Below, piece by piece: positions 8,992 to 60,718 of a stretch of 64,000 nt of DNA. The stretch is from an uncultured Thermotogae bacterium (GTDB lineage Bacteria > Bipolaricaulota > Bipolaricaulia > UBA7950 > UBA9294): NCBI GenBank assembly GCA_964466035.1, contig CAYXLR010000006.1:28918-92917 (forward strand). Direction: 5' to 3'. Position 1 is the stretch's first letter. Each line of letters opens with the position of its first letter. The position numbers and the translations under genes were made by a program. The notes beneath the pieces are model-generated. The model searched no databases and was not told the origin of the DNA. It saw nothing but the letters and a program-made list of their open reading frames with translations.

Positions 8992-10807
8992 GCGGACGTC
9001 GCGCGCTTCGAGTTCCCGCTTCTTCCGGTTCGGCCTCGCCGCGGACGGGTCGTACCGGTTCGATCCGTTCGCGCTCCCCCCTCAGTTCCGGATGCTCGGC
9101 ACCGGCCAGCTCGGCGGCAAGGCGCGGGGGCTCCTGTTCGCGATGAAGGCGATGCACGACGGCGCCCGGCTCACCCGGTTTCAACACCTCCTTCGGTTCC
9201 CGGACTCCACCGTGTTGACATCGGAGGTGTTCGAGACGTTCATGGAGGAGAACCGGCTGCAGGACGCCGTGCGCGCCGGCTGCGAAGGGACGATCACCCT
9301 CGACGAGCTCTCCGAACGGATCGTCTCGGCAACGTTCCCGCGGGCGTGGGCCGAAGAGTTGATCCCGTTTCTCGAGCGGGAGACCCGGCCGCTCGTCGTC
9401 CGCTCTTCGTCGGTGATGGAGGACGACCCGGACCACTCCTTCGCCGGGATCTACCTGTCGGTCTTTCTGGCGAACACCGGGCCGCTCGACGCGCGCCTCA
9501 AGCGGCTGATCGATGCGATCAAGCGCGTCTACGCGTCGACGTTCGCCCCGAACGCGCGGGCGTACCGAAAGCGGCACGGGCTCGACTGGCGAAAGGAGAG
9601 GATGGCCATCCTCGTCCAGAACATGATCGGGGGCCCGTACGAACACGACCTGTTCTACCCGCTCGTCGGCGGCGTCGCGTTCTCCCGCAACTACTACCCG
9701 TGGACCGACCGCCTCACGCCGGACGACGGGGTCGTCCGGCTCGTCGTGGGCACCGGCACGAGGGCGGTCGGCCGCGAGTACGCTCGCGTGTTCTCGCCGC
9801 GGCGGCCGGGCCTCCGGCCGGAGGGGTTCGACGTCGGCACGATCGTCCGGTACTCGCAGGAGACGGTCGACGTCCTCGACATGGAGGCCGGAGAGCTCGC
9901 CCAGCGGAAGCTGTACGAGCTCGACAACCCCCTCCTCGCGACGATCTGCTCCCGGGTCGACGCCGACGGGGAACTCCGCGAGACGCCGCACGCCCCGGCC
10001 GGTCTCGGCGGCCGGCTCATCGCGTCCTTCACCAGCCTGATCGAGACGGACGCGATCATGCCGCTGACCCCGCTGATCCGAGAGCTGCTCACCGCCCTGG
10101 CCGAGCTGCTGGAGCTGCCAGTCGACGTCGAGTTCGCGATCGACTTCTCCGGACCGGAAGCGGAGGCGGCCGGGTCGCCGCTGTTCTCCATCCTGCAGGT
10201 CCGCCCGCTCGGCAGCCGCCCCGAGCACCGCCGGATCCACCTCCCGCAGGTCCGCGAGGACCGCTCGGTCCTCGAATGTCACCAAGTCCTGGGAAACGGA
10301 AGGATCGACGGAATCCGCCATCTCGTCCTCGTGTCTCCCGAGACGTATCGGTGGGACAAGGGGTACGAGATCGCCCGGTCGGTCGGTCGGATCAACCACC
10401 GTCTCTCGGAGCGCGACGAGCCGTACGTCCTGATGGGGCCCGGCCGTTGGGCGTCGACGAACCCGCAGCTCGGCGTCCCGGCGCAGTACAACGAGATCGC
10501 CGGCGCGTCGGTCATCGTCGAGATGTCGACCGGATCGTTCGCCCCCGAGCTCTCGTACGGGACCCACTTCTACGCCGACATGGTCGGAAGCGGCGTCCTC
10601 TACCTACCGTTCCGAGAGGAGGCGGGAGACCGGCTGAACCGGGATCTCCTGGCGAACCAGGAGGTGGCCTACCGGGACGAATTCGTGACCCACTACACGT
10701 TCCGGCACGGACTGAGCGTGTTCGTCGACGGGGAGCATCAGCGGGGGATCATCTTCCTTCAGCGTCCGCGCTCGGCCCGAGCACGACGACGGCGTCCCAT
10801 GGGCTGA
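8966..10807 (+). CDS. PEP/pyruvate-binding (PPDK_N, ATP-grasp) domain protein of unknown function
   Basis: LGGKARGL, PLVVRSSSVMED..SFAGIYLS, VDVEFAID, ILQVRP, GPGRWAS, SYGTHFY; ATG 8966 after AAGGAG. Confidence 0.85.
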   Translation: MLGRQPRRRRTSRASSSRFFRFGLAADGSYRFDPFALPPQFRMLGTGQLGGKARGLLFAMKAMHDGARLTRFQHLLRFPDSTVLTSEVFETFMEENRLQDAVRAGCEGTITLDELSERIVSATFPRAWAEELIPFLERETRPLVVRSSSVMEDDPDHSFAGIYLSVFLANTGPLDARLKRLIDAIKRVYASTFAPNARAYRKRHGLDWRKERMAILVQNMIGGPYEHDLFYPLVGGVAFSRNYYPWTDRLTPDDGVVRLVVGTGTRAVGREYARVFSPRRPGLRPEGFDVGTIVRYSQETVDVLDMEAGELAQRKLYELDNPLLATICSRVDADGELRETPHAPAGLGGRLIASFTSLIETDAIMPLTPLIRELLTALAELLELPVDVEFAIDFSGPEAEAAGSPLFSILQVRPLGSRPEHRRIHLPQVREDRSVLECHQVLGNGRIDGIRHLVLVSPETYRWDKGYEIARSVGRINHRLSERDEPYVLMGPGRWASTNPQLGVPAQYNEIAGASVIVEMSTGSFAPELSYGTHFYADMVGSGVLYLPFREEAGDRLNRDLLANQEVAYRDEFVTHYTFRHGLSVFVDGEHQRGIIFLQRPRSARARRRRPMG

Positions 10808-48611: not shown

Positions 48612-50381
48612 GTGGCAGGGAGTGTCCCATCCGATCTTGACATCGCACAGGCGGCAAAGCCGAAGCCGATCACGCAGATCGCGGAGAACCTCGGCATCCT
48701 CGAGGACGAGCTCGACCCGCACGGCAAGCTGAAGGCGAAGGTGAAGCTGTCGATCCTCGACCGGCTCGCCGATCGACCGAACGCCAAGTACATCGACGTC
48801 ACCGCGATCACGCCGACGCCGCTCGGCGAGGGAAAGTCGACGACGATGGTCGGGCTGACGCAGGCGCTCGGCAGCGTGCTCGGCAAGAACGTCATGTGCT
48901 GCATCCGCCAGCCGAGCATGGGGCCGACGTTCAACATCAAGGGCGGCGCCGCCGGCGGCGGCTACTCCCAGGTCGTCCCGATGGAGGACTTCAACCTCCA
49001 CCTGACCGGCGACATCCACGCGATCTCCGTCGCGCACAACCTCGTCGCCGCGGCGCTCGACACCCGGATGTTCCACGAGTCACGTCAGAGCGACGAGGCG
49101 CTCGCCAAGCGCGGCGTGAAGCGGCTCGACATCGACCCGGAGACGATTACGTGGCGCCGGGTCGTCGACATCTGCGACCGCTCCCTGCGCGAGATCCAGG
49201 TCGGGTTCAACGACGACAAGCTGAAGGACGGCTCGCCGAGCCCGGTGTTCCCCCGGGTGACCGGCTTCGACATCACCGTTTCCTCCGAGATCATGGCGAT
49301 CCTCGCCCTCGCGACCTCGCTCGCGGACATGCGGGAGCGGTTCGGCCGGATGGTCGTCGGCCTCGACAGGAAGGGGAATCCGGTCCACGTCGAGCAGCTC
49401 GGCGCCGCGGGCGCGGTGACGGTCCTGATGAAGGAAGCCCTCATGCCGACGCTGATGCAGACGCTCGAGGGTCAGCCGGCGTTCGTCCACGCCGGGCCGT
49501 TCGCCAACATCGCCCACGGGAACAGCTCGATCGTCGCCGACAAGATCGCCGTGAAGCTCGCCGACTACGTCGTGACGGAAAGCGGGTTCGGCGCCGACAT
49601 CGGGATGGAGAAGTTCTTCGACATCAAGTGCCGCACCTCCGGGCTGATCCCGAACGCCGTCGTCCTCGTCGCGACCGTCCGCGCCCTCAAGATGCACGGC
49701 GGCGGGCCGGCCGTGAAGCCGGGCGCGCCGCTCGACGAGGCGTACACGCAGGAGAACCTGCCGCTGCTCGAGAAGGGGCTGTGCAACCTCGGCGCGCACA
49801 TCCAAAACGCGCTCAAGTTCGGCATCCCGGTCGTCGTCGCCGTCAACGCGTTCCACACCGACACGCCGGCCGAGCTGGAGAGGATCCGCGAGTACTCGGT
49901 CGCCCAGGGCGCCGAGGACTCGGTCGTCACGACCCACTGGGCCGACGGCGGAAAGGGCGCCGGGAAGCTCGCCGAGGCGGTCGTCGCCGCCTGCGAGAAG
50001 CCGTCGAACTTCGACTTCCTGTACCCGCTCGATTGGTCGATCAAGGAGAAGATCGAGAAGATCTCGACCGACATCTACGGCGCGGACGGCGTCTCGTACG
50101 AGCCGCTCGCCGAGAAGCAGATCGCCGACTACGAGCGCGCCGGCTTCGGGAACCTGCCGATCTGCATGGCGAAGACCCACCTCTCCCTGTCGCACGACCC
50201 GAACCTGAAGGGCCAGCCGACCGGCTTCACCGTGCCGGTCCGCGAGGTCCGCGCCTCGGTCGGCGCCGGCTTCATCTACCCGTTGATCGGAACGATGAGC
50301 ACGATGCCCGGGCTCGCCACCCACCCCGCGTTCATGAGCATCGACATCGACGAGAACGGCGAGATCACCGGCCTGTTCTAG
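48612..50381 (+). CDS. fhs: Formate--tetrahydrofolate ligase
   Basis: [60 protein letters not shown]. Confidence 0.97.
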
Positions 50382-50407
50382 GTGGCGAGCGGGAGAAGGG
50401 AGCGTCG

Positions 50408-50881
50408 GTGTCGGAGCAATGGCCGCGTGTGCTGCGTGAGGAGATCGAGGAGGCCGCAGGACGGCCCGAGCGACTGATCCATGTCCTGCGGCGCGTCCAG
50501 GAGACCGTCGGCTTCATCTCTCCCGAGTCGGAGGCCATCGTCGCCGAGCGGCTCGGCGTGAAGATCGCTCGCGTTCACGGTGTCGTGACGTTCTACCATC
50601 TGTTCTACACCTCACCGCGCGGTCGGCACACGGTTCGCGTCTGCCAAGGCACGGCGTGCCACGTTGGCGGCGGCGACCGGATCCTCCGGGCGATCGAGGA
50701 CCGACTCGGCGTCACGCCCGGAGAGACGACCGACGATCTTGCCGTCACCCTAGAGACGGTCGCCTGCCTCGGCGCCTGTGCGCTGGCTCCGGTGATGGTC
50801 GTCGACGACGTCTACCACGGCCTGTTGACGCCGGATGAAGCCGTGGCGATCGTCGATCAAACGCTCGAGGAGGACGGATGA
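50408..50881 (+). CDS. NuoE/HydC-like [2Fe-2S] subunit of the formate dehydrogenase complex
   Basis: LIHVL..VQE..GFI, VHGVVTFY, VCQGTACH..CLGACALAP; GTG 50408. Confidence 0.92.
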   Translation: MSEQWPRVLREEIEEAAGRPERLIHVLRRVQETVGFISPESEAIVAERLGVKIARVHGVVTFYHLFYTSPRGRHTVRVCQGTACHVGGGDRILRAIEDRLGVTPGETTDDLAVTLETVACLGACALAPVMVVDDVYHGLLTPDEAVAIVDQTLEEDG

Positions 50882-52749
50882 CCGGGCGGATCACGACCCG
50901 CGAGCAACTCGACGCGCTCAAAGCGTACAACCTCAAGCGGCTCGCCTCCGTTGAGCAGCGGATCGCTGTTTGCAACGGCACCGGCTGTCGGGCGTGCGGG
51001 GGAGTCGAGGTGAAGGACGCCTTGGTCGCCGCCGTTGCATCGCACGGGCTCTCCGACCGGGTCGCGGTGATGCCGACTGGCTGTCAGGGGTACTGCCAGC
51101 GCGGTCCGCTCGTCACCGTGGAGCCGGCCGGGATCTTCTACCACGGCGTCAAGCCTGCCGATGCCGAGCGAATCGTCGCCGCAACGATCGAGCGAGGAGA
51201 ACTCGTCGACGACCTGCTTCTCGCCGATCCGGTCACCGGCGAGCGGATCCCGCGCCGCGACGAGGTCCGCTTCTACACCGGGCAGCAGCGAATCGTCTTC
51301 GCGCTGAACGGGAAGATCGACCCGGTGTCCATCGGAGACTACATCGCCCACGACGGCTACCAGGCCCTGGCGAAGGCGCTTCTCGACATGGGTCCGGAAT
51401 CGATCGTCGACGAGGTCCTTCGGGCCGGGCTGCGCGGACGCGGCGGTGCCGGGTTCCCGACCGGCCGCAAGTGGAAGTTCACTCGGGACGCGCCGGGCGA
51501 CGTCAAGGTCGTCGTCTGCAATGCCGATGAGGGCGATCCGGGCGCGTTCATGGACCGCTCGCTGATCGAGGCGACACCCCACGCCGTGCTCGAAGGGATG
51601 TTAATCGCCGCCCACGCGATCGGCGCGAGCCAAGGCTACGTCTACGTCCGTGCCGAGTACCCGCTCGCCGTCAAACACATCCGCAAGGCGATCGACGACG
51701 CTCGCTCCCTCGGCCTTATCGGGAAAGGCATCTTCGGCACCGACTTCTCGATCGACATCCATGTCATGGAAGGGGCGGGCGCGTTCGTCTGCGGCGAGGA
51801 GACGGCCCTGCTCCAATCGATCGAGGGCAAGCGCGGCATGCCGCGACCCCGACCGCCGTTTCCGGCCCAGTCCGGCCTGTGGGGCCGGCCGACGAACCTC
51901 AACAACGTGGAGACGTACGCCAACGTCCCGCCGATCATTCTCCGCGGTGCCGAGTGGTACGCGGGAATCGGAACAGAGACGAGCAAGGGGACCAAGATCT
52001 TCTCCCTCACGGGGAAGGTAGCGAACAATGGGCTCGTCGAGGTGCCGATGGGGACGACGCTGCGGCACATCATCTACGAAGTCGGCGGCGGGATGCGCGA
52101 CGGCCGGGAGTTTAAAGCGGCGCAGCTCGGGGGGCCGTCCGGCGGCTGTCTGCCAGCCGATCTCCTCGACGTACCGATCGACTACGAGTCACTCGGCGAG
52201 CACGGAGCGATCATGGGGTCGGGCGGGGTGATCGTCCTCGACGACACCGCGTGCATGGTCAGCATCGCCCGCTTCTTCCTCGACTTCACCGCGAGCGAGT
52301 CGTGCGGGAAGTGCGTTCCGTGTCGCGTCGGGATCCCGACGATGCGCGACATCCTCGTCCGGATCACCGAGGGGGAGGGGGAACCGGAGGACCTCGACCG
52401 GCTGCGGGAGCTGGCCGAACTCGTGAAGTCGTCGGCGCTGTGCGGCCTCGGCCAGACGGCGCCGAACCCGGTCCTGTCGACCCTCCGCTACTTCGAGGAC
52501 GAGTATCGGGCGCACATCGAGGATCGGATCTGCCCGTCCGGCGTCTGCGAGGCGCTTGCCCCACCGTACCGGATCGATCCGGAGGCGTGCAAGGCGTGCG
52601 ACCAGTGCGCCAAGGTCTGTCCGACCGGTGCGGCGCGCGGCACGCCGGGCGAGCCGCCGTACGAGATCGACGAGCAGCTGTGCATCCGATGCGGCGCCTG
52701 CTACAAGGCCTGCCCGTTCGACGCCGTGACGAGGGGGGCCCGATCATGA
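50878..52749 (+). CDS. NuoF/HydB-like FMN/NAD-binding subunit with extra Fe-S domains
   Basis: N-terminal Trx-like [2Fe-2S] (CNGTGC..CQGYC), GLRGRGGAGFP, NADEGDPGAFMDR, GAFVCGEETAL, ESCGKCVPCR, LCGLG, C-terminal 2x[4Fe-4S]. Confidence 0.93.
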   Translation: MTGRITTREQLDALKAYNLKRLASVEQRIAVCNGTGCRACGGVEVKDALVAAVASHGLSDRVAVMPTGCQGYCQRGPLVTVEPAGIFYHGVKPADAERIVAATIERGELVDDLLLADPVTGERIPRRDEVRFYTGQQRIVFALNGKIDPVSIGDYIAHDGYQALAKALLDMGPESIVDEVLRAGLRGRGGAGFPTGRKWKFTRDAPGDVKVVVCNADEGDPGAFMDRSLIEATPHAVLEGMLIAAHAIGASQGYVYVRAEYPLAVKHIRKAIDDARSLGLIGKGIFGTDFSIDIHVMEGAGAFVCGEETALLQSIEGKRGMPRPRPPFPAQSGLWGRPTNLNNVETYANVPPIILRGAEWYAGIGTETSKGTKIFSLTGKVANNGLVEVPMGTTLRHIIYEVGGGMRDGREFKAAQLGGPSGGCLPADLLDVPIDYESLGEHGAIMGSGGVIVLDDTACMVSIARFFLDFTASESCGKCVPCRVGIPTMRDILVRITEGEGEPEDLDRLRELAELVKSSALCGLGQTAPNPVLSTLRYFEDEYRAHIEDRICPSGVCEALAPPYRIDPEACKACDQCAKVCPTGAARGTPGEPPYEIDEQLCIRCGACYKACPFDAVTRGARS

Positions 52750-55442
52750 CCGAAGGCGTTTCGATCACGATCGACGGCCGGCCCGTCGAGGCGCGGGCCG
52801 GGGAGACCGTCCTCGCCGTCGCCCGGCGGCACGGCATCGACATCCCCGGTCTCTGCTACCATCCGCGGCTGACGCCGACCGGCGGCTGCCGGCTCTGCCT
52901 CGTGAAGATCGACGGTCGGCCCGGGACGACGACCGCGTGCACGCTCGAGGCGACGGAGGGGCTGTCGATCACCGCGTTCGACGACGAGCTCGAGGCCGAG
53001 CGGCGCGGGCTGATCGAGCTCCTGCTCGCCGAGCACAACTGCGATTGCGTCGTCTGCGAGTCGGCCGGCCGCTGTGAGCTCCAGGACCTCGCCTACCGCT
53101 ACGGCCTCGACCAGCGAACGCGCCGATACCGGTTCCCGCCGCGCGATCTCCCCGACGAGGACGCCTCCTCGCCGGTCCTCGTGTACGACCCGAGCAAGTG
53201 CATCCTCTGCGAGCGGTGCGTCAAGGCGTGCGACGAGATCCAGGGGAAGGCGATCCTCTCCTACGCCTTCCGAGGACTCGACGCCGTCGTCACCGCCGGC
53301 CCGGGCGGCTGGGGCGCCTCCGATTGCGACGGCTGCGGCGAGTGCGTCCAGCTCTGCCCGACCGGGGCGATCCGCGAGAAGCTCGACGTCCGACCGCCGC
53401 GGCACTGGGAGCTGAGGCCGGTGCACACGACCTGCTCGTACTGCGGCGTCGGCTGCCGGCTCGACCTGTGGGTCCACGACGGACGGATCGTCAACGTCAC
53501 CGGCGCGGACGCGGTCCCCAACTTCGGCTCGACCTGCGTCAAGGGGCGGTTCGGCCACACGTACGTCCAGGCCGAGGACCGTCTGACCCGGCCGCTGATC
53601 CGGCGGGACGGCGCGCTCGTCGAGGCGACGTGGGACGAGGCGCTCGACGAGGTCGCCCGGCGGCTGAACGAGATCGTGGCCGAGCACGGACCCGACGCGA
53701 TCGGCGGCTTGTCTTCGGCGACGTGCACCAACGAGGAGAACTACCTGTTCCAGAAGCTCCTGCGCGCCTGCGTCGGGACGAACAACGTCGATCACTGCGC
53801 CCGCCTCTGCCACGCGTCGACCGTCGCCGGGCTCGCCGCCGCGTTCGGCTCCGGCGCGATGACGAACTCGATCGCCGAGCTAGAGTTCGCCGACTGCCTC
53901 CTCGTCACCGGCTCGAACACGACCGAGACCCACCCGGTCATCGCCAACCTGATCGTGCGGGCCGTCCGGTACCACAGCGCGAAGCTGATCGTCGTCGACC
54001 CCCGGCGGATCGACCTCGTCAAGCACGCGGCCCTCTGGCTGCGACAACGCAACGGCACCGACGTCGCCTGGATCAACGGGATGATGTCCGTCATCCTGTC
54101 GGAGGGGCTGCACGACGAAGCGTTCGTCGCCGAGCGCACCGAGGCGTTCGACGCGCTCCGCGCCGTTCTCGATCGCTTCACCGTCGACGACGCGGCGCGG
54201 ATCTCCGGCATCCCGTCCGAACAGCTCGCCGCGGCCGCCCGCATGTACGCCGGCGCCGAACGCGCTGCGATCGTCTACGCGATGGGGATCACCCAGCACA
54301 CGCACGGGACGGACAACGTCCTCTCGCTCGCCAACCTGGCGATGCTCACCGGGTCCGTCGGGAAACCATCGTCCGGCGTCAATCCGCTGCGCGGTCAGAA
54401 CAACGTGCAGGGCGCGTGCGACCTCGGCGCCCTCCCGAACGTCTACCCCGGGTACCAGCCGGTCACCGACCCCGACGTCCGGGCGAAGTTCGAGTCGGCG
54501 TGGGGCGTCGGCCTCCCGCCGGACGTAGGTCTCACGGTCGTCGAGATGATGCACGCGGCGGCCGATGGGCGCGTCAAAGGCATGATCATCATGGGCGAGA
54601 ACCCGATGATCTCCGACCCGAACCTGAACCACGTCGAGGAGGCTCTGAGGGCGCTCGACTTCCTCGTCGTGCAGGACGTCTTCCTCACCGAGACGGCGCA
54701 GCTCGCCGACGTCGTCCTCCCCGCCGCGTCGTTCGCCGAGACGAACGGGACGTTCACCAACACCGAGCGGCGCGTGCTGCCCGTCCGCCGGGCGATCGAC
54801 CCGCCCGGCGAGGCGCGGCCGGACTGGGAGATCCTGTGCGACCTGTCGACCCGCATGGGCTACCCGATGCGCTATCCCGACGCCGCGGCGATCATGGACG
54901 AGATCGCGTCGGTCTCGCCGATCTACGGCGGGATCCATCACCGCAGGCTCGAGCCGGCCGGCCTGCAATGGCCGTGCCCGTCCGACGACCACCCCGGAAC
55001 CGTCTTCCTCCACGAGGGGACGTTCCGCCGCGGGCTCGGCCGGTTCCACGCCGTCGAGTACACCCCGTCGGCCGAGCTCCCCGACGACGAGTACCCGTTC
55101 GTCCTGTCGACCGGCCGGATCCTCCAGCACTTCCACACCGGCTCGATGAGCCGCCGGTCCGGCGCGTTGAACGCCTACGGGAACGAGCCGTACGCCGAGA
55201 TCCATCCGGACGACCTCGCAACGCTCGGCGTCGAGGACGGGGGGAAGGTCCGCGTCGCGACGCGCCGCGGCGAGATCGTCACGAACGCCCGCGCGGCGGA
55301 GCGCGTCGCCCCCGGTTCGGTGTTCATCCCGTTTCACTTCGTCGAAGCCGCAGCGAACCGGTTGACCAACGACGCCCTCGACCCGAAGGCGAAGATCCCC
55401 GAGCTGAAGGTCGCCGCCTGCCGGATCGAACGGGTAGATTGA
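52746..55442 (+). CDS. fdhF: Mo/W formate dehydrogenase alpha subunit, Cys form, fused to HydA-like Fe-S domains
   Basis: [2Fe-2S], H-ligated and 2x[4Fe-4S] modules, then TCSYCGVGC..CVKG, DHCARLCHAST (Cys, not Sec), PLRGQNNVQG, IPELKVAAC; ATG 52746. Confidence 0.94.
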   Translation: MTEGVSITIDGRPVEARAGETVLAVARRHGIDIPGLCYHPRLTPTGGCRLCLVKIDGRPGTTTACTLEATEGLSITAFDDELEAERRGLIELLLAEHNCDCVVCESAGRCELQDLAYRYGLDQRTRRYRFPPRDLPDEDASSPVLVYDPSKCILCERCVKACDEIQGKAILSYAFRGLDAVVTAGPGGWGASDCDGCGECVQLCPTGAIREKLDVRPPRHWELRPVHTTCSYCGVGCRLDLWVHDGRIVNVTGADAVPNFGSTCVKGRFGHTYVQAEDRLTRPLIRRDGALVEATWDEALDEVARRLNEIVAEHGPDAIGGLSSATCTNEENYLFQKLLRACVGTNNVDHCARLCHASTVAGLAAAFGSGAMTNSIAELEFADCLLVTGSNTTETHPVIANLIVRAVRYHSAKLIVVDPRRIDLVKHAALWLRQRNGTDVAWINGMMSVILSEGLHDEAFVAERTEAFDALRAVLDRFTVDDAARISGIPSEQLAAAARMYAGAERAAIVYAMGITQHTHGTDNVLSLANLAMLTGSVGKPSSGVNPLRGQNNVQGACDLGALPNVYPGYQPVTDPDVRAKFESAWGVGLPPDVGLTVVEMMHAAADGRVKGMIIMGENPMISDPNLNHVEEALRALDFLVVQDVFLTETAQLADVVLPAASFAETNGTFTNTERRVLPVRRAIDPPGEARPDWEILCDLSTRMGYPMRYPDAAAIMDEIASVSPIYGGIHHRRLEPAGLQWPCPSDDHPGTVFLHEGTFRRGLGRFHAVEYTPSAELPDDEYPFVLSTGRILQHFHTGSMSRRSGALNAYGNEPYAEIHPDDLATLGVEDGGKVRVATRRGEIVTNARAAERVAPGSVFIPFHFVEAAANRLTNDALDPKAKIPELKVAACRIERVD

Positions 55443-55455
55443 CTCCCACAAGCAT

Positions 55456-55703
55456 TCACCGCAGAGGACGCAGAGAGACGCAGAGAGAAGCCCTGGGAAG
55501 AGGATCACCATGAAGGACATGAAGGGGAGAACCACACCCATCCTCTCGCAGAGGCGCGGAGAACGCTGAGAAAAGCTCAGGAGGGTTCTTCCCTCTCCCC
55601 TAGCGGGAGAGGGTCAGGGTGAGGAGGTCTGGCGACCTTCGGCGGCGAGTCATCATCTTCTATCCTCTTGTACGGTCAGATGCTGACTCTGCGCTCTCCG
55701 CGG
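55456..55703. repeat. Composite REP-like repeat, copy A (left boundary of the island)
   Basis: Modules CCGCAGAGGACGCAGAG, CACCATGAAGGACATGAAG, CGCAGAGGCGCGGAGAACGCTGAG, hairpin CCCTCTCCC-N5-GGGAGAGGG-TCAGGGTGAGG, and inverted arm CTCTGCGCTCTCCGCGG; collinear with copy B at offset 2629-2630. Confidence 0.9.
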
Positions 55704-55918
55704 ACATGCCGTTGCGTTATTCGCTCTCCATCGGCAGGATGGAAAGGGCGCAAGTCCGCAGTGCCGAGGGGATGAGTCGAGCGAGGGCACACGATCGGCA
55801 GCATTCGGTGGATGGGTCTCCAGCAGGGTAACCGACTGGCAGTGCGAGAACTTCTCTCTCCAGTAGCCACGGACTGTCCCTGGGAGCCGCAGACGAGCCG
55901 CGGCACGCTGTACTCCCC

Positions 55919-55947
55919 TTGACATAGAGGTTTTCTTCAGGTATTAT
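55919..55947 (+). promoter_or_regulatory. Strong sigma70-type promoter of the peptide/C39 cassette
   Basis: TTGACA-17 nt-TATTAT. Confidence 0.75.
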
Positions 55948-55973
55948 ACGATATCTCATGCAGCAAGGGGGTA

Positions 55974-56348
55974 GTGATGCTCCGACTGCGGTTCATCCTT
56001 GTGTGTCTGTTGGTTTGTGCCTGTGCGATTCCGCTCAGGGTAGCCGCAACTTCTGATCCCGTCCTCGCGGGCGAGCCCTTCTCTGTGCCGCTGCCGGCCG
56101 GACGAGAGCTCGCCGACGATGAACTTCTCGAAGTCGAGGGAGAGCTCGTCTGGTTCGTCGGACTTCTCATCATCGCTGTCGCATCAGGAGTGGGTGCCGG
56201 AGGCGGTATGGCCGTCCATGAGAACTGGTTCGATGAGGACTACGGCATCGACGGCGACGATTGGGGAAACATAGGACTGGTTGCGGGCTGCACCTTCGGC
56301 GGAGTCTTGACTGGTGGCATTGCCACACACTACGTCGGGCCGATGTAG
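55974..56348 (+). CDS. Secreted peptide precursor: signal peptide, double-glycine-like leader and Gly-rich hydrophobic core
   Basis: MLRLRFILVCLLVCACAIPLRVAA signal; ELADDELLEVEG(E) leader-like motif; core with GxxxG helices flanking an Asp-rich loop. Confidence 0.7.
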   Translation: MMLRLRFILVCLLVCACAIPLRVAATSDPVLAGEPFSVPLPAGRELADDELLEVEGELVWFVGLLIIAVASGVGAGGGMAVHENWFDEDYGIDGDDWGNIGLVAGCTFGGVLTGGIATHYVGPM

Positions 56349-56376
56349 GCTGCCGCTGCTCCTACCTTCAGACACC

Positions 56377-56610
56377 ATGGCTGATAGGAGAACACGCTTC
56401 CAACCAGGGCTGACTTCCATCTTCTCATTCGTGATCGTGGCATTCGTTTTGCCCGGAGTGTACGGTGCAATCACTGGCTCTGCTCCGCCCGCTCCGTGGC
56501 AGATGGGATCATGGGCAATCTGGATTGCATTCTGCGTGGGAGTCTTTCTGTTCGGATACGCCGTGACCAAGGTAGTACTGCGCTTGCTGGAGCGGAGGGA
56601 GCACCGATAG
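56377..56610 (+). CDS. Small two-TM membrane protein (77 aa), possible immunity or accessory factor
   Basis: Two hydrophobic segments with basic termini; lies between the precursor and the peptidase in the same orientation. Confidence 0.55.
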   Translation: MADRRTRFQPGLTSIFSFVIVAFVLPGVYGAITGSAPPAPWQMGSWAIWIAFCVGVFLFGYAVTKVVLRLLERREHR

Positions 56611-56644
56611 GTACACACCCCAGAGCGGCAATTGCTAGATAGAG

Positions 56645-57328
56645 ATGACAGCCGGAATGCGGCGGATCGCCGAGAAGGCGCAGTGGTTTCTCTGTCTTGC
56701 TGTTGTCGGTTTTGCCGGCTGCATACTACAGCATCCACAGGCTTCGGGGTCGAATGCCGCAGTGTCATTCCGCGACTTGAGGTATCAAGGCGCTATCGCG
56801 CAAACCAGCGACTACTCCTGCGGAGCGGCGGCCACGGCTTGCCTCCTCGACACGTACTATGGGATCCCCACAACGGAGGCCGAGATTCTTGAGCTGGCAG
56901 AGCGGCAGATGTCTGCTCGCGGCGAGGAGTCAGGGCTTGCGCATGGTCTCACGGCCTACGATCTGAAGACCGCATCCGAAGCTCTGGGCCTCGACATGGC
57001 AGGATACGAGCTCACACACGCTCAGCTACAGGACTACTTCGAGCGAGGCGGTCTACCCTTGATCGCACACGTGACCCAGCCGCGAGCACACTACCTTGTC
57101 GTAGTTGGGATGACCACTCAGCATGTCCTGCTATCGGATCCCGCATGGGGGCGCTACGTCGCGCCTGCACGTGAGCTCGCTGATGCCCGTGGCATGAGTG
57201 GCGTGTTCCTTGTTCCCCTGCCGACCATGGAGGAGGCTCTACACGCGCGGGGGATCCAGGCATCTGCTCTGGAATGGATGCGAAATCGAGTCCTCCAGTT
57301 GTCGGATCTACGCGAGGCCATGCTGTGA
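56645..57328 (+). CDS. Stand-alone secreted C39 cysteine peptidase (FapD-like)
   Basis: Hydrophobic N-terminal signal; SFRDLRYQGAIAQTSDYSCGAAA (Q, C), PLIAHV..AHYLVV (H), LLSDPAWG (D); no ABC or TM domains. Confidence 0.88.
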   Translation: MTAGMRRIAEKAQWFLCLAVVGFAGCILQHPQASGSNAAVSFRDLRYQGAIAQTSDYSCGAAATACLLDTYYGIPTTEAEILELAERQMSARGEESGLAHGLTAYDLKTASEALGLDMAGYELTHAQLQDYFERGGLPLIAHVTQPRAHYLVVVGMTTQHVLLSDPAWGRYVAPARELADARGMSGVFLVPLPTMEEALHARGIQASALEWMRNRVLQLSDLREAML

Positions 57329-58107
57329 GAGCCGCCGTCCTTCTCCTCCTGATAGGTCTGTCTTGGTTCGTGGTGGGAGGTGCTCAGACGCCAGCATTCG
57401 ATCCCCTCCGCCTCGCAGAAGACACCAACGAAGCACAGATCTCGTGGGACGTATCGCTGGCGTACCACCCACAAGGAAGCACCGGGGCTGGGTATGATGA
57501 CCTCGGTCAGTTCTACACGTTTGTGAGATTCATTGATCAATGGCAGTCGAGCGTTTCGATGTCCTGGTCCTTCAGCCCGTGCCACAAGCTGGGAACGGCT
57601 CTGACCCAGAGCACTACCACCCTCTACGAACGACGCCTGTACGAGTCATCCGAGTCGGAGGAAACGTATACCAGCAGAGACTTCTCGTACTCAAGCTACT
57701 ACGAGTATCGCATCGCCCCGGACAGCCCGCTCGATCCTCGTCTCCGCCTGTCATATCGATCCCCTTCGTGGTTTGGACTTGCTGCATCCGTCAGCCGGAT
57801 ACTTGATCCTGTGGTTCTGACGGCAATGGTCGGGTTTTTGCACAAGCATCAAAGACCACTCAACTGGGTCGACCTCTCGCTGAGTGCAGGATTGGTTGCA
57901 AACTCCAGAGTGACCTTCACTGTGTCCAGTGGAATGGCCGTTCCAGTACAGGATGCCGGTCTGCCGTCTGCATCGGTCGGTCTCTGCGCTCGCTACTCGC
58001 GCAATCCAAGTGGAGGTCTCCAGCTCTCTGTGCAGGCCACCCTGCACATGCAAGGGCAGTCCTCCTGGATCGCTCCGTCATTGTCGATCCGAGGGCGGCA
58101 TCCCTAG
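57325..58107 (+). CDS. Putative outer-membrane beta-barrel transporter (FapF-like)
   Basis: GTG overlaps the peptidase stop; signal peptide; alternating amphipathic strands rich in S/T/Y/W; SRILDPVVL..VGF and LSAGLVANSRVTF resemble FapF DPxVL and G-x-x-N strand motifs. Confidence 0.55.
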   Translation: MRAAVLLLLIGLSWFVVGGAQTPAFDPLRLAEDTNEAQISWDVSLAYHPQGSTGAGYDDLGQFYTFVRFIDQWQSSVSMSWSFSPCHKLGTALTQSTTTLYERRLYESSESEETYTSRDFSYSSYYEYRIAPDSPLDPRLRLSYRSPSWFGLAASVSRILDPVVLTAMVGFLHKHQRPLNWVDLSLSAGLVANSRVTFTVSSGMAVPVQDAGLPSASVGLCARYSRNPSGGLQLSVQATLHMQGQSSWIAPSLSIRGRHP

Positions 58108-58125
58108 AGAGGAACTCAGAGACCT

Positions 58126-58332
58126 CCACCATGAAGACCATCAAGGTCACGAAGAGGAAGACCAACCCCATTCTCGCGCAGAGGCGCGGAGAACGCTGAG
58201 AAAAGCTCAGAACGGTTCTGCCCTCTCCCCTGGTGGGAGAGGGTCAGGGTGAGGGGAGGAATCCTTCGACATCGAGGTGGCTTTCCCCGTATTCTCTTGT
58301 ACAGTCAGATGCTGACTCCGTGCTCTCTGTGG
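58126..58332. repeat. Composite REP-like repeat, copy B (right boundary of the island)
   Basis: 58177-58210 is identical to 55547-55580 (34 nt); 58294-58318 matches 55665-55689 at 24/25; same CCCTCTCCC/GGGAGAGGG hairpin. Confidence 0.9.
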
Positions 58333-58371
58333 CCCAGCGAGAGAAAGGACTTCGGCGTCTGGGAGGCTGAG

Positions 58372-59076
58372 GTGGAAACAACCGAGCGGGTACCGATCCA
58401 GCGTGTAGAAGGCGGGAACGTCGAGGCGGTCGACGACACGCTCGTCGCGGAGGCGAGCGTCGCGATCGCGCTCCGCGGCGACGAGCTGATCCGCGCTGTC
58501 TGCTCGCCCGGTCATCTGCGGGAATGGGCGATCGGGTACCTGTTCTCCGAGGGGTACATCACACGGCCGGACGATGTCGAAGAGATCCGTGAGAGCGACG
58601 GCGTCCTCACGATCGACCTGGTGCCCTCGGCGCCCGCGGAGCCCGCGGCGCTTCTCCCGGTGGAGAGCGACCGCTGCGCGACGCCCGAGCGGATCCTCGC
58701 CGTCGCACGCGAGGCAGTCGACAAGGCGGAGGTCTTCAAGCAGACCGGCGGGACCCACGCGGCGGCGATCGCTGACGAGTCGGGCATCGTCGCCTTCGTC
58801 GAGGACATCAGCCGCGCCTGCGCGCTCGAGAAGGCAATCGGGACCGCGCTGGAACAGCGCGCAGACTTCAGCCGCTCGCTCGCTTTCCTCTCGTCTCGCG
58901 TCCCGTCCCGGATGCTCGCGAAGCTCGCGCGGAGTGGCGTCCCGATCGTCGCCGCCGTGTCCGCTCCGACGATCGACGCCGTTCGGCTCGCCGAGGCGCT
59001 GAACGTCTGCCTCTGCGGCTTCGTCCGCGGAGAGCGACTGAACTTCTACGCCCACGGATGGAGGGTTGGGCTGTGA
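58372..59076 (+). CDS. fdhD: Formate dehydrogenase accessory sulfurtransferase FdhD
   Basis: SPGHLREWAIGYLFSEG, FKQTGGTHAAA, SAPT, CGFVRG; GTG 58372 after GGAGG. Confidence 0.88.
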   Translation: METTERVPIQRVEGGNVEAVDDTLVAEASVAIALRGDELIRAVCSPGHLREWAIGYLFSEGYITRPDDVEEIRESDGVLTIDLVPSAPAEPAALLPVESDRCATPERILAVAREAVDKAEVFKQTGGTHAAAIADESGIVAFVEDISRACALEKAIGTALEQRADFSRSLAFLSSRVPSRMLAKLARSGVPIVAAVSAPTIDAVRLAEALNVCLCGFVRGERLNFYAHGWRVGL

Positions 59077-59657
59077 ACCGCGAACCGGCGACGCTGATCG
59101 TCCTCGCCGGCGGTGAGGCGAAGCGGTTGGGCTTCCCGAAGCACCGGCTCACGGTCGCCGGGGAGCGTGTCATCGACCGGCTGTGCCGGCGCCTCGGTCC
59201 CCTGTTCGCCGAGACGATCGTCGTGGGGTGTGACCTCGACGGACTCCCGCCGGGCGTCCGCACGACCGAGGATCGATTCCTGGTCCGCAGCCCGCTCGTC
59301 GGGATCCACGCCGGCCTCGCCGCCTCGCGGACCGACCTTGCCCTTGTCACCGCCTGCGACATGCCGCACGTCGAACCCGCACTTGTGGAGTTCCTTCTCA
59401 CCCAAGCCGAAGGCGTCGACGCCGTCGTTCCCGTCGTCCGCGGCTACCACGAACCGCTCTGCGCCGTCTATCGGAGGTCCTGCATCGCTCCCATTGAGGA
59501 TCTCATCGAACGTGGCGTCCTGAAGGTCTCCACGCTGTATGATGGCGTACGTCTCCGAGAGATCGGCGAGCTGGAGGTCTGCACACATGATCCCGAGCTC
59601 CAGTCGTTTGTGAATCTGAACGTCCCAGTAGCCATTAGGCGACCTCAGAGTTCCTAG
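59073..59657 (+). CDS. mobA: Molybdenum cofactor guanylyltransferase
   Basis: LAGGEAKRLG.K, SPLVGIHAGL, ACDMP, EPLCAVY, FVNLN. Confidence 0.9.
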   Translation: MNREPATLIVLAGGEAKRLGFPKHRLTVAGERVIDRLCRRLGPLFAETIVVGCDLDGLPPGVRTTEDRFLVRSPLVGIHAGLAASRTDLALVTACDMPHVEPALVEFLLTQAEGVDAVVPVVRGYHEPLCAVYRRSCIAPIEDLIERGVLKVSTLYDGVRLREIGELEVCTHDPELQSFVNLNVPVAIRRPQSS

Positions 59658-59897
59658 GAGTAGCCTATACACAAGCGCGAACCAGAGGCCTACTCTGCCT
59701 GTTTGAAAACCTAGAATGCTTTTGAACGCCGGTGTGCAAGAAGCTTTGTGTGTGGAAACCTGAAGCTTATTGAACGGTCCGCCGTGTCGACCGTGCTCTG
59801 GTGCAGACGGGCCTTGTACTGCAGACCGAGTACATAGGCTTATGTGTCTTCGCGCTAATTCCTCCGTATAAGCCAAGAGAAGGGAAGAATCGAAGAC

Positions 59898-60308
59898 GTG
59901 GCCAGGAAGAAGGCCGAGAACGCAACCCCTTACGCAAGTGTGCGAATCGACGGTGAGCAGTACACCTGTTGGGATAACGCTCTCATCTCGAAGCTCGAAT
60001 CCGGATAAGAGGTTGACTACCAGCGGGAGCAGTCGCGCAAGTTCAAGAAGATCATCGACATCGAGCCGGCACTCGACGACTCTCACCTGTCTTCGAAGGA
60101 TCTCTGCGTCGTTCGGATGAGCGCCTTGCGATCCGCGTCGTACTCGGAGATAGGCCTGGACCTCCCCCATCGAGTAAAAACGCCGTACGGCGTTGGAGAC
60201 ACCACGGGCCTTCGGAGAACACGTCTTGTGGCCCAATCCATCTGTGTCGTGCGATTGCTGTCCATTGGGCGTTGTCCAGCTCTCTACGGGGGAGAACGCA
60301 GCCCGTAG
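59898..60308 (+). pseudogene. Probable pseudogene of a small OB-fold-like protein, in-frame TAA at 60006-60008
   Basis: GTG after AAGGGA; MARKKAENATPYASVRIDGEQYTCWDNALISKLESG*EVDYQREQSRKFKKIIDIE reads as continuous protein-like sequence across a single stop; low-GC patch. Confidence 0.45.
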
Positions 60309-60454
60309 GCCGCCGGGACCGGAGACTGTGGGACACACGCGCAGGCCCGGACGGCACGGCTCGCCAGCTTGTTCTGCCCTCGATGCATCCCTACGTGGGG
60401 CACCCGAGAACGAACAGCGAGCTCTCAGTTACGGCTGGTGCTGCCGGCATCCCA

Positions 60455-60475
60455 GTTCGAATCCCCCAGGCTCCA
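60455..60475 (+). other. tRNA-Ala/tmRNA-like 3' fragment (possible att-site scar)
   Basis: GTTCGAATCCCCCAGGCTCCA matches a T-loop, 3' T-stem and Ala-type acceptor strand, with no matching 5' T-stem upstream. Confidence 0.4.
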
Positions 60476-60718
60476 ATGCCGCCATGGGAGCAGCCAGTCA
60501 CGACTTCAGTGTGATCAAACGCGCGTCGCTCGTGCGTTCACCGTGAGGCCATCACGTACCGCTAGGCACCTTCCAGGCCCCAAAAGGCATGCCATCAGGA
60601 GCTATGCCGGTTGTCGCTCTGACCTTGCCTCCGGGCTCGAAAGAAGTGAGAATGGGCGTGGCATCCCCAAAGTGTTAAGTAATACTGAAGAAGGTCCGAC
60701 GGGAAGGCAAGGAGGACG

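Follow-up and report, generated by a model that had tools for sequence, protein, structure and literature searches.

The subject of this analysis is a four-gene cassette within a formate dehydrogenase locus, contained in a 64,000-nucleotide stretch of DNA (contig CAYXLR010000006.1, positions 28,918 to 92,917 of the forward strand; hereafter the window) from an uncultured bacterium assigned to the Bipolaricaulota. Upstream of the cassette lies fdhF (52746-55442), which encodes a catalytic subunit of formate dehydrogenase that has NuoG-like Fe-S modules at its N terminus (Pfam Molybdopterin, 2.7e-87, together with Molydop_binding, Fer2_4 and NADH-G_4Fe-4S_3) and is called as a protein of 898 aa in contigs of the same population. 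Downstream lie fdhD (58372-59076; formate dehydrogenase sulfurtransferase, Pfam FdhD-NarQ, 1.1e-50) and mobA (59073-59657; molybdenum cofactor guanylyltransferase, Pfam NTP_transf_3, 7.7e-31), and all three genes are on the forward strand. An earlier reading of the sequence, the original prediction, had described the DNA between them as an island bracketed by direct repeats that separates fdhF from fdhD-mobA, and the Pfam matches confirm the genes that it placed on either side.

The cassette is preceded by 215 nt of unique non-coding sequence on the forward strand (55704-55918, here termed X), which shows no significant similarity to mobA, fdhD or the upstream regions of relatives; a 10-nt sequence at its start, ACATGCCGTT, matches the mobA breakpoint of two relatives (L017 and L081, below), but was discounted as too short. 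The predicted cassette promoter follows (55919-55947, forward strand; TTGACA-17-TATTAT, 11/12 to consensus), and its -35 box is the first position conserved across all five cassette lineages. Conservation extends from this box to the stop codon of the last gene, with nothing shared beyond either end, and the four tightly packed genes, all on the forward strand, form a self-contained operon running from its own promoter to its last stop codon. The first, g1 (55977-56348), encodes 123 aa with a signal peptide and a hydrophobic segment but no Pfam match; its conserved motif PLPxGRELxDDELLxVEGE resembles a double-glycine leader, and it also carries an acidic block, HENWFDEDYGID (HENWFDEDYGIDxDDW). 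The second, g2 (56377-56610), encodes a protein of 77 aa that resembles a membrane protein with two transmembrane segments, and it is called in L004, L006 and in the relatives. The third gene (56657-57328, with an alternative start at 56645) encodes a C39 (double-glycine) peptidase of 223 aa (Pfam PF03412, 1e-17) with an N-terminal signal- or lipobox-like sequence, of which g1 is a probable substrate. The fourth, g4 (57325-58107), has a GTG start that overlaps the C39 stop codon and encodes an all-beta protein of 260 aa with a signal peptide.

The AlphaFold model of g4 consists of strands throughout (predicted local distance difference test score, pLDDT, 61.6), and its best matches in the PDB are FapF structures, with an E-value of 2e-5 but template-modelling (TM) scores of only 0.35-0.42. 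On this structural likeness, g4 is probably a FapF-like outer-membrane barrel. In the functional-amyloid export system Fap of Pseudomonas, FapD is a C39-like peptidase and FapF a barrel (PDB 5O65), and the cassette similarly pairs a C39 peptidase with a barrel-like protein whose top structural matches are to FapF. The cassette differs from Fap in that the match is weak (TM 0.35-0.42, pLDDT 62), in that it has neither FapB/C-like repeat subunits nor FapA/E, and in being an operon of four genes with environmental homologues only. With moderate confidence, its cargo may be described as a Fap-like operon for peptide processing and export. All 35 homologues of the C39 peptidase are environmental sequences; a profile search of genome contigs with the C39 alignment gave, among the matches listed, only distant relatives (at most 50% identity) and no Bipolaricaulota context. 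No homologue of g4 was found in plasmid or phage collections. Separately, assemblies break at position 57890, inside g4, in two independent samples (the JGI contig pair L005/L073 and Logan run X3), which hints at a strain variant or a drop in coverage.

In agreement with the original prediction, the enclosed DNA is lower in guanine and cytosine (GC) than its surroundings, at 0.55-0.62 versus 0.69-0.72 in fdhF and fdhD; the cassette as a whole has a GC content of 0.589, versus 0.667 in the remaining window. Its GC content at third codon positions is 0.60-0.71 in every lineage, regardless of the host flanks, and that of fdhF is 0.82-0.94. The predicted lack of mobility genes is likewise borne out. 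A Pfam search of the four cassette open reading frames and the flanking genes identified C39 as the sole cassette domain and no integrase or transposase, and no Pfam recombinase is found among the genes of the population contigs, from about 10 kb upstream to past the downstream end of the window. A repeat search revealed no terminal inverted repeats around the cassette.

What the repeat search does reveal is a direct pair at 55507-55624 and 58137-58254 (118 nt, 87% identity, offset 2630) and a second at 55661-55703 and 58290-58332 (43 nt, 86%, offset 2629), which BLASTN merges into a single 194-nt match of 80.4% identity. The longest identical run between the copies is 34 nt (55547-55580 and 58177-58210), and the 64-kb window contains two exact occurrences of its 33-nt core, as against zero expected from shuffles. 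Both copies contain the hairpin CCCTCTCCCC-N5-GGGAGAGGG followed by TCAGGGTGAGG, as well as the block TCTTGTACRGTCAGATGCTGACTC and the mini-hairpin GTCAGATGCTGAC. The left copy (55496-55703, forward strand; BLAST-supported from 55507) comprises a CATGAAG unit, the core at 55547-55580, the hairpin at 55591-55613 with its TCAGGGTGAGG, a tail, and the module arm2 (55687-55703). The right copy (58108-58332, forward strand) is a 5'-truncated unit with its core at 58177-58210, its hairpin at 58221-58243, a tail, and arm2' (58316-58332), and it begins immediately after the g4 stop codon (58105-58107). The left side alone is opened by a further module, arm1 (55459-55490, forward strand; CACCGCAGAGGACGCAGAGAGACGCAGAGAGAAG), a GCAGAG-type sequence resembling repetitive extragenic palindromic (REP) elements, which pairs with arm2 in the RNA fold. 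The arm1 portion of the left side (55456 to about 55500, or some 40-50 nt) has no counterpart in the right copy. The bracketing by two direct copies with a common offset, a 34-nt block and a shared hairpin stands as predicted, while the first 40-50 nt of the left copy as it was originally drawn are unpaired.

The origin of this sequence is indicated by eight further lineages, which were obtained from the contexts of C39 and FdhD homologues. In six of them (L011, L017, L066, L075, L077 and L081) fdhF adjoins fdhD with no cassette between, and in L011, L066, L075 and L077 a single copy of the spacer separates the two genes, which is the empty site that the original prediction had foreseen. The L011 spacer has the order arm1-u1-u2-core-hairpin-tail-arm2-leader, followed by fdhD; those of L066, L075 and L077 are shorter and bounded by the same arm1 and arm2, and that of L017 measures only 17 nt. 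Against the L011 spacer, the window sequence aligns on the left side as far as 55567 and on the right side starting at 58108 (87.6% identity over 58108-58243), and from 58247 onward the window continues into fdhD as in L011 and L066. At the left junction, fdhF runs without a break into arm1-u1, just as it does in L011 and L075, and at the right junction arm2-leader-fdhD is unbroken as in L011 and L066. Both outer junctions are therefore the ancestral ones, which is the topology of a target duplication. Since the spacer is single in the empty sites and both flanks align to it, the repeat is the fdhF-fdhD spacer itself, a composite of REP-like palindromic modules. The original prediction had the island enter by recombination at a repeat element; a derived, integrase-free insertion or rearrangement to which the repeats are linked is upheld, but the repeat is local spacer and not a portable element.

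The individual modules of the spacer are nonetheless widespread. Exact copies of the 25-nt core GCAGAGGCGCGGAGAACGCTGAGAA are found in 19 unrelated metagenome contigs (GC contents of 41-62%), where the core usually forms one arm of a long GCAGAG-type palindrome that follows a gene. Many contigs with unrelated flanks in the same metagenomes match the hairpin and arm1 modules. Arm1 follows fdhF in L075, L011, L066 and L009, and unrelated contigs match it as well. This abundance could be taken to mean that a dispersed element, similar to REP sequences or to miniature inverted-repeat transposable elements (MITEs), colonised the two sides of the cassette independently and that the bracketing is a coincidence. 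Copy number, as derived from metagenome contigs in which the organism has a depth of about 34x, argues otherwise. The only matches to the left copy longer than 70 nt at 80% likeness are the two copies themselves, and the depth across the repeat tail, 67.6, is the exact sum of those of the two copies (34.1 + 33.5). Therefore, the composite of about 195 nt is a two-copy duplication rather than a dispersed high-copy family, and the repeats are not so abundant that the flanking would be fortuitous. Outside the locus only single modules of 25-40 nt match, and the full set of five modules, arranged in one order over about 195 nt, is present solely in the two window copies and in the L011 and L066 orthologues of the spacer. 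With the tail and arm2 at a depth of exactly two copies, independent colonisation is extremely improbable.

REP elements and the bacterial interspersed mosaic elements (BIMEs) built from them are extragenic palindromic sequences of E. coli and other bacteria. The spacer is like them in being made of short, GC-rich palindromic modules, which many unrelated bacteria also have downstream of genes, and unlike them in that the duplicated unit is a 195-nt composite confined to this locus. The modules probably act as hairpins at RNA ends; when folded as RNA, the two copies score only slightly better than shuffled sequences (z -1.9 and -1.5), which is insufficient for a claim of structured RNA, and an Rfam search over 54.0-60.5 kb found no RNA family, the sole match being a chance one to a long non-coding RNA (E 0.46). 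The module (A/C)CGCAGAGGCGCGGAGAACGCTGAGAA (window 55547-55580; loci L052-L070) is kept exactly, in non-coding sequence, in 19 contigs of very different organisms. The identity of the core in the two copies can be put down to such conservation across taxa instead of to recent gene conversion. The 20% divergence between the copies makes the duplication an old event, and recombination between them would be inefficient.

The cassette itself is found in four contexts: between fdhF and fdhD in the window and in L009, between mobA and nuoB in L011 and L081, after nuoBCD-Fer4 in L017, and after a MatE gene in L019. In L081, a 153-nt segment of mobA (82% identity) has been recopied, starting 7 nt before the g4 stop codon. 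In L017, mobA fragments of 279 nt and 98.6% identity lie on both sides of the cassette, inside a region of weaker homology, which suggests that they undergo gene conversion with each other. In L019, 185 nt (94.6%) of the 3' part of a convergent neighbour gene, gene Y, are duplicated. The repeat spacing corresponds to one unit length each, namely 2747, 2886 and 2644 nt in L081, L017 and L019, respectively, as against 2630 nt in the window. Thus, local duplications of 150-290 bp flank the cassette in four of six lineages, and their sequences (spacer, mobA, gene Y) differ by lineage. These loci contain only seven repeat pairs of at least 60 nt in 159 kb, and four of the seven flank the cassette. 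Downstream of mobA in L066 lies an integrase-free island of about 8 kb, whose genes specify a radical-SAM enzyme, a 900-aa M16-like peptidase, an ABC ATPase and a ketoacyl synthase. Direct copies of the fdhD 3' and mobA 5' ends border the island on both sides (1208-1378 and 9202-9372; 85%, at least 171 nt, as the locus ends there), a scar of the same kind with different cargo.

Together, the ancestral outer junctions and the duplications favor, as a somewhat probable explanation, that the cassette was placed here by a duplicative rearrangement requiring no dedicated recombinase. Judging from the flanks in the other lineages, a duplicative, integrase-free rearrangement appears to recur around this cassette. 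Because similar duplication scars adjoin the same operon elsewhere, the operon would have been moved by ordinary recombination without an integrase, being shuffled by the host around the fdh-mobA-nuo region of the Bipolaricaulota, and the two diverged spacer copies of about 200 bp would be the local duplication left by the rearrangement that placed it in the window.

Two topologically equivalent routes might produce this arrangement. In the first, a unit that includes the cassette would be duplicated in tandem, the repeat marking the junction, and the redundant parts would then be lost. In the second, a circle carrying a homologue of the spacer would enter by a single RecA-type crossover. In both, the new joint would form by microhomology at the g4 stop codon. 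For the window, the first route might take the form of a 4.4-kb duplication of [spacer-fdhD-mobA-P-cassette] with subsequent losses, which would explain why a cassette ancestrally linked to mobA now lies upstream of fdhD. For L019, L081 and L017, a tandem duplication with partial deletion, or a templated patch, fits the arrangement.

The window topology fits a single crossover of a circle and a resolved tandem duplication equally. Several observations weigh against this explanation or against one of its routes. The duplication-loss route predicts relics of the lost parts, and their absence weighs against it: BLASTN, TBLASTX and Smith-Waterman comparisons with shuffles detected no relic of a deleted fdhD-mobA copy in X (55704-55918), nor one of a second cassette at 59.66-60.72 kb. 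The asymmetry that a foreign spacer should show is in the expected direction yet not significant (93% versus 85%, and 71% versus 64% identity to L011). The neighbour gene of L019 is intact and still ends, beside the right copy, in its ancestral C-terminal tail, which contradicts insertion by a simple single crossover in that lineage. All homologues of gene Y end in ...LRW(T/I)G(A/V)L(G/R/S), the tail found beside the right copy, and the left copy is therefore an ectopic fragment. Finally, in L009, a more distant relative, the cassette occupies the same fdhF-fdhD site (fdhF 83% and cassette 78.7% identical to those of the window) without long repeats, having only an arm1-like module after g4. 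The duplication is therefore not needed for residence at this site and may have its own, separate history. This case had been named at the outset as one that would tell against entry through the repeats, and it does count against that reading, while the three further lineages described above have other long flanking repeats. The last cassette gene of L009 lacks the ancestral stop codon and reads 18 codons on into the arm1-like GCAGAG module (L009:8440-8502).

An alternative source of the two copies is a head-to-tail array of the spacer that existed beforehand and was split by an unrelated insertion of the cassette, in which case the repeats would be neither product nor vehicle. The L011 spacer does contain a partial tandem duplication, u1-u2, with a 90-nt period, and a split array would also leave both outer junctions ancestral. 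Yet a tandem pair of the full unit of about 200 nt is seen in no relative, and such an array explains neither the duplicated coding segments at the same cassette in L081, L017 and L019 nor the start of the right copy at the g4 stop codon in the window; the L081 joint is left unexplained likewise. This scenario is thus quite unlikely.

The original prediction further held that the cassette could still be excised, giving a mobile unit or a locus of variable copy number. Contigs 99.8-100% identical to the window (L001-L008 and L071-L074) were available from seven JGI metagenomes and three Logan runs, and every population contig from the salt-marsh samples that reaches the region has the cassette and both repeats. 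In the two cleanest runs, the depth of the 2656-nt cassette unitig equals that of the fdhD-side unitig (34.1 versus 33.5, and 9.82 versus 9.84). No joint skipping the 2.6 kb was seen in eight Logan runs, although this is weak evidence, as k=31 contigs break inside the 34-nt identical core, and unitig depth is the better argument. Given the equal depth, the missing skipping joint and the presence of the cassette in every contig, the cassette is fixed in the population, with no amplification and no empty-site fraction at this resolution. Recombination between the copies could in principle excise the cassette, but no excision was observed, and the claim of a locus that is excisable or variable in copy number today is thus not sustained, with copies 20% diverged.

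In its strongest form, that claim would have a circle of about 2.63 kb, consisting of the cassette and one repeat, excise by RecA and re-insert at homologous sequence, so that the locus is polymorphic or variable in copy number today. The window topology is exactly that of a single crossover with both outer junctions ancestral, and the 34-nt identical core could serve as the crossover site. Furthermore, the L017 fragments, at 98.6% identity within weaker homology, suggest ongoing gene conversion, and the mobA fragments beside the L017 cassette are no closer to that lineage's own mobA than to those of other lineages, as if travelling with the cassette. Against an active unit stand the 80% identity of the copies, the uniform population contigs, and the equality of depth without skipping joints (k=31 unitigs being unable to resolve a junction inside the 34-nt core); in addition, L019 contradicts the simple model, and the cassette lacks flanking repeats in both L011 and L009. 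An active mobile unit is therefore unlikely.

A recombinase encoded elsewhere could, alternatively, act in trans and move the cassette between att-like sites within the repeats. The decayed patch downstream of mobA contains a stretch similar to the 3' end of a tRNA, which is compatible with this proposal, but there is no tRNA gene nearby. Moreover, the flanking repeats are of different sequence in each lineage (spacer, mobA, gene Y), nothing outside the promoter-to-stop unit is conserved among the cassette copies, and no short core is common to the left and right junctions in five lineages. The cassette thus has no conserved end sites. Because there is no such gene, no conserved ends, and repeats that differ by lineage, a site-specific recombinase is unlikely, and its action in trans is very improbable. 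The same observations set the cassette apart from integrase-dependent islands, as no tyrosine or serine recombinase lies in or beside it (Pfam) and no att core is conserved in five lineages. It is also distinct from insertion sequence (IS) elements, composite transposons and MITEs: there is no transposase, there are no terminal inverted repeats, and the duplications measure 150-290 bp versus 2-14 bp.

Single-crossover (Campbell-type) integration of a circle through a cloned or captured homologous segment, or tandem duplication at microhomology, places an insert between direct repeats of the length of the shared segment. In both, the outer junctions stay ancestral, no dedicated recombinase takes part, and the repeat spacing equals the unit length. 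The window insert resembles their products in being flanked by target copies, with ancestral outer junctions and a spacing of 2630 nt; this is so in the window, but not in L019. The arrangement departs from these models in that the copies are 20% diverged and no circle or tandem intermediate was observed (in k=31 Logan contigs, which are broken in the 34-nt core), and also in that the second copy is fragmentary in L019 and L081, so that extra deletions must be assumed. In homology-facilitated illegitimate recombination, homology anchors one end of the foreign DNA, and the other end is joined illegitimately (PMC3240628). The right joint at the g4 stop codon, with weak microhomology in both the window and L081, is similar, but that mechanism alone duplicates no target.

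The minimal mobile elements (MMEs) of Neisseria (Saunders & Snyder 2002; Snyder et al. 2007, as described in PMC3787668) are whole-gene cassettes without mobility genes that lie between the same conserved flanking genes and vary among close relatives, and their exchange is ascribed to homologous recombination in the flanks. As with MMEs, the interval between fdhF and fdhD may be occupied (window, L009) or empty (L011, L017, L066, L075, L077 and L081), and the contents of the mobA-nuoB interval differ by lineage, being the cassette, an IS3 element, AbiE genes or other cargo. Identity also changes abruptly across the site: relative to L075, which comes from the same sample as the window population (3300031650), it is 96% in the 3' kilobase of fdhF up to 55489 and 88.5% in fdhD-mobA. 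Unlike in MMEs, whose definition does not include long direct repeats, local duplications of 150-290 bp flank the cassette here.

Additional signs of possible exchange come from short contigs only, without a genome-wide baseline. The nearest relatives of fdhF are L075 (96%) and L011 (90%), and fdhD is, like fdhF, nearest to L075, L077 and L011, whereas the cassette is nearest to L009 (78.7%, versus 70.7% to L011). Along the locus, identity to L011 is mosaic, passing from 96% to 40-75% and then to 86-96%. Over window positions 50300-52100 (L011:300-1900), it is 96% at the end of the FTHFS gene and then 40-75% over NuoE-like and NuoF-like genes, the NuoF-like protein having 595 aa in L011 versus 623 aa in the window; from 52.1 kb through fdhF it is back at 86-96%. 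So sharp a mosaic suggests recombination tracts and, together with the discordant nearest relatives, points to a possible exchange of alleles through recombination between homologous flanks, as for the MMEs of Neisseria.

More broadly, one may tentatively, and with some doubt, propose that the Bipolaricaulota carry a class of integrase-free 'hitch-hiking operons', promoter-to-stop units that would move as circles or tandem units with a 150-300-bp copy of their previous neighbour and re-enter by host homologous recombination, each move leaving a long local duplication. Its members would be the C39/FapF-like cassette, in four contexts and with three different flanking duplications, and the 8-kb island of L066. 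The recurrence of long duplications around one operon in several lineages is the most interesting result of this analysis and merits a phylum-wide survey. It offers a concrete multi-lineage case of an operon that, with no gene dedicated to mobility, is relocated both within and between the genomes of an uncultured phylum, with long neighbour duplications as scars. Should the pattern be general, such scars could reveal, in metagenome-assembled genomes, recombination-driven cassettes that integrase-based island finders miss.

For the host locus, insertion of the cassette explains why fdhD-mobA is separated from fdhF in this genome. Promoter-like signals are present in each part, a strong one at 55919 and a weaker one upstream of fdhD inside the right copy (58266-58295, forward strand; TCGACA-18-TATTCT, 9/12 match), so that maturation of formate dehydrogenase need not be disturbed. 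The fdhD leader (58333-58371, forward strand), with a Shine-Dalgarno sequence GGGAGG at 58359-58364, is 86% identical to those of L011 and L066. Homologues of fdhD are named FdhD in Bipolaricaulota at NCBI; an exact match to FdhD contigs was obtained with the 255-aa version of the protein, and none with the version starting at 58372 or that of 275 aa.

Between mobA and nuoB lies a hot spot of variable cargo, some of it defence-like. In L077 (6380-10548) it contains an IS3-family transposase and an SLFN/AlbA_2 protein, and in L075 (2797-6846) a DUF4145 protein and an AbiEi/AbiEii pair. In the window, mobA is followed by a patch of about 1 kb (59658-60718, no strand assigned) with a GC content of 0.51-0.57, which is apparently non-coding and in which no gene is called in the population contigs. 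Part of it, around 60443-60478 (...CAGTTCGAATCCCCCAGGCTCCA...), resembles the T-arm and 3' end of a tRNA; no tRNA is predicted at this place by ARAGORN, and the sole tRNA gene of the window is at 30.6 kb. The patch occupies the position at which relatives hold the cassette or other cargo, and because that cargo is variable, it may be a decayed island.

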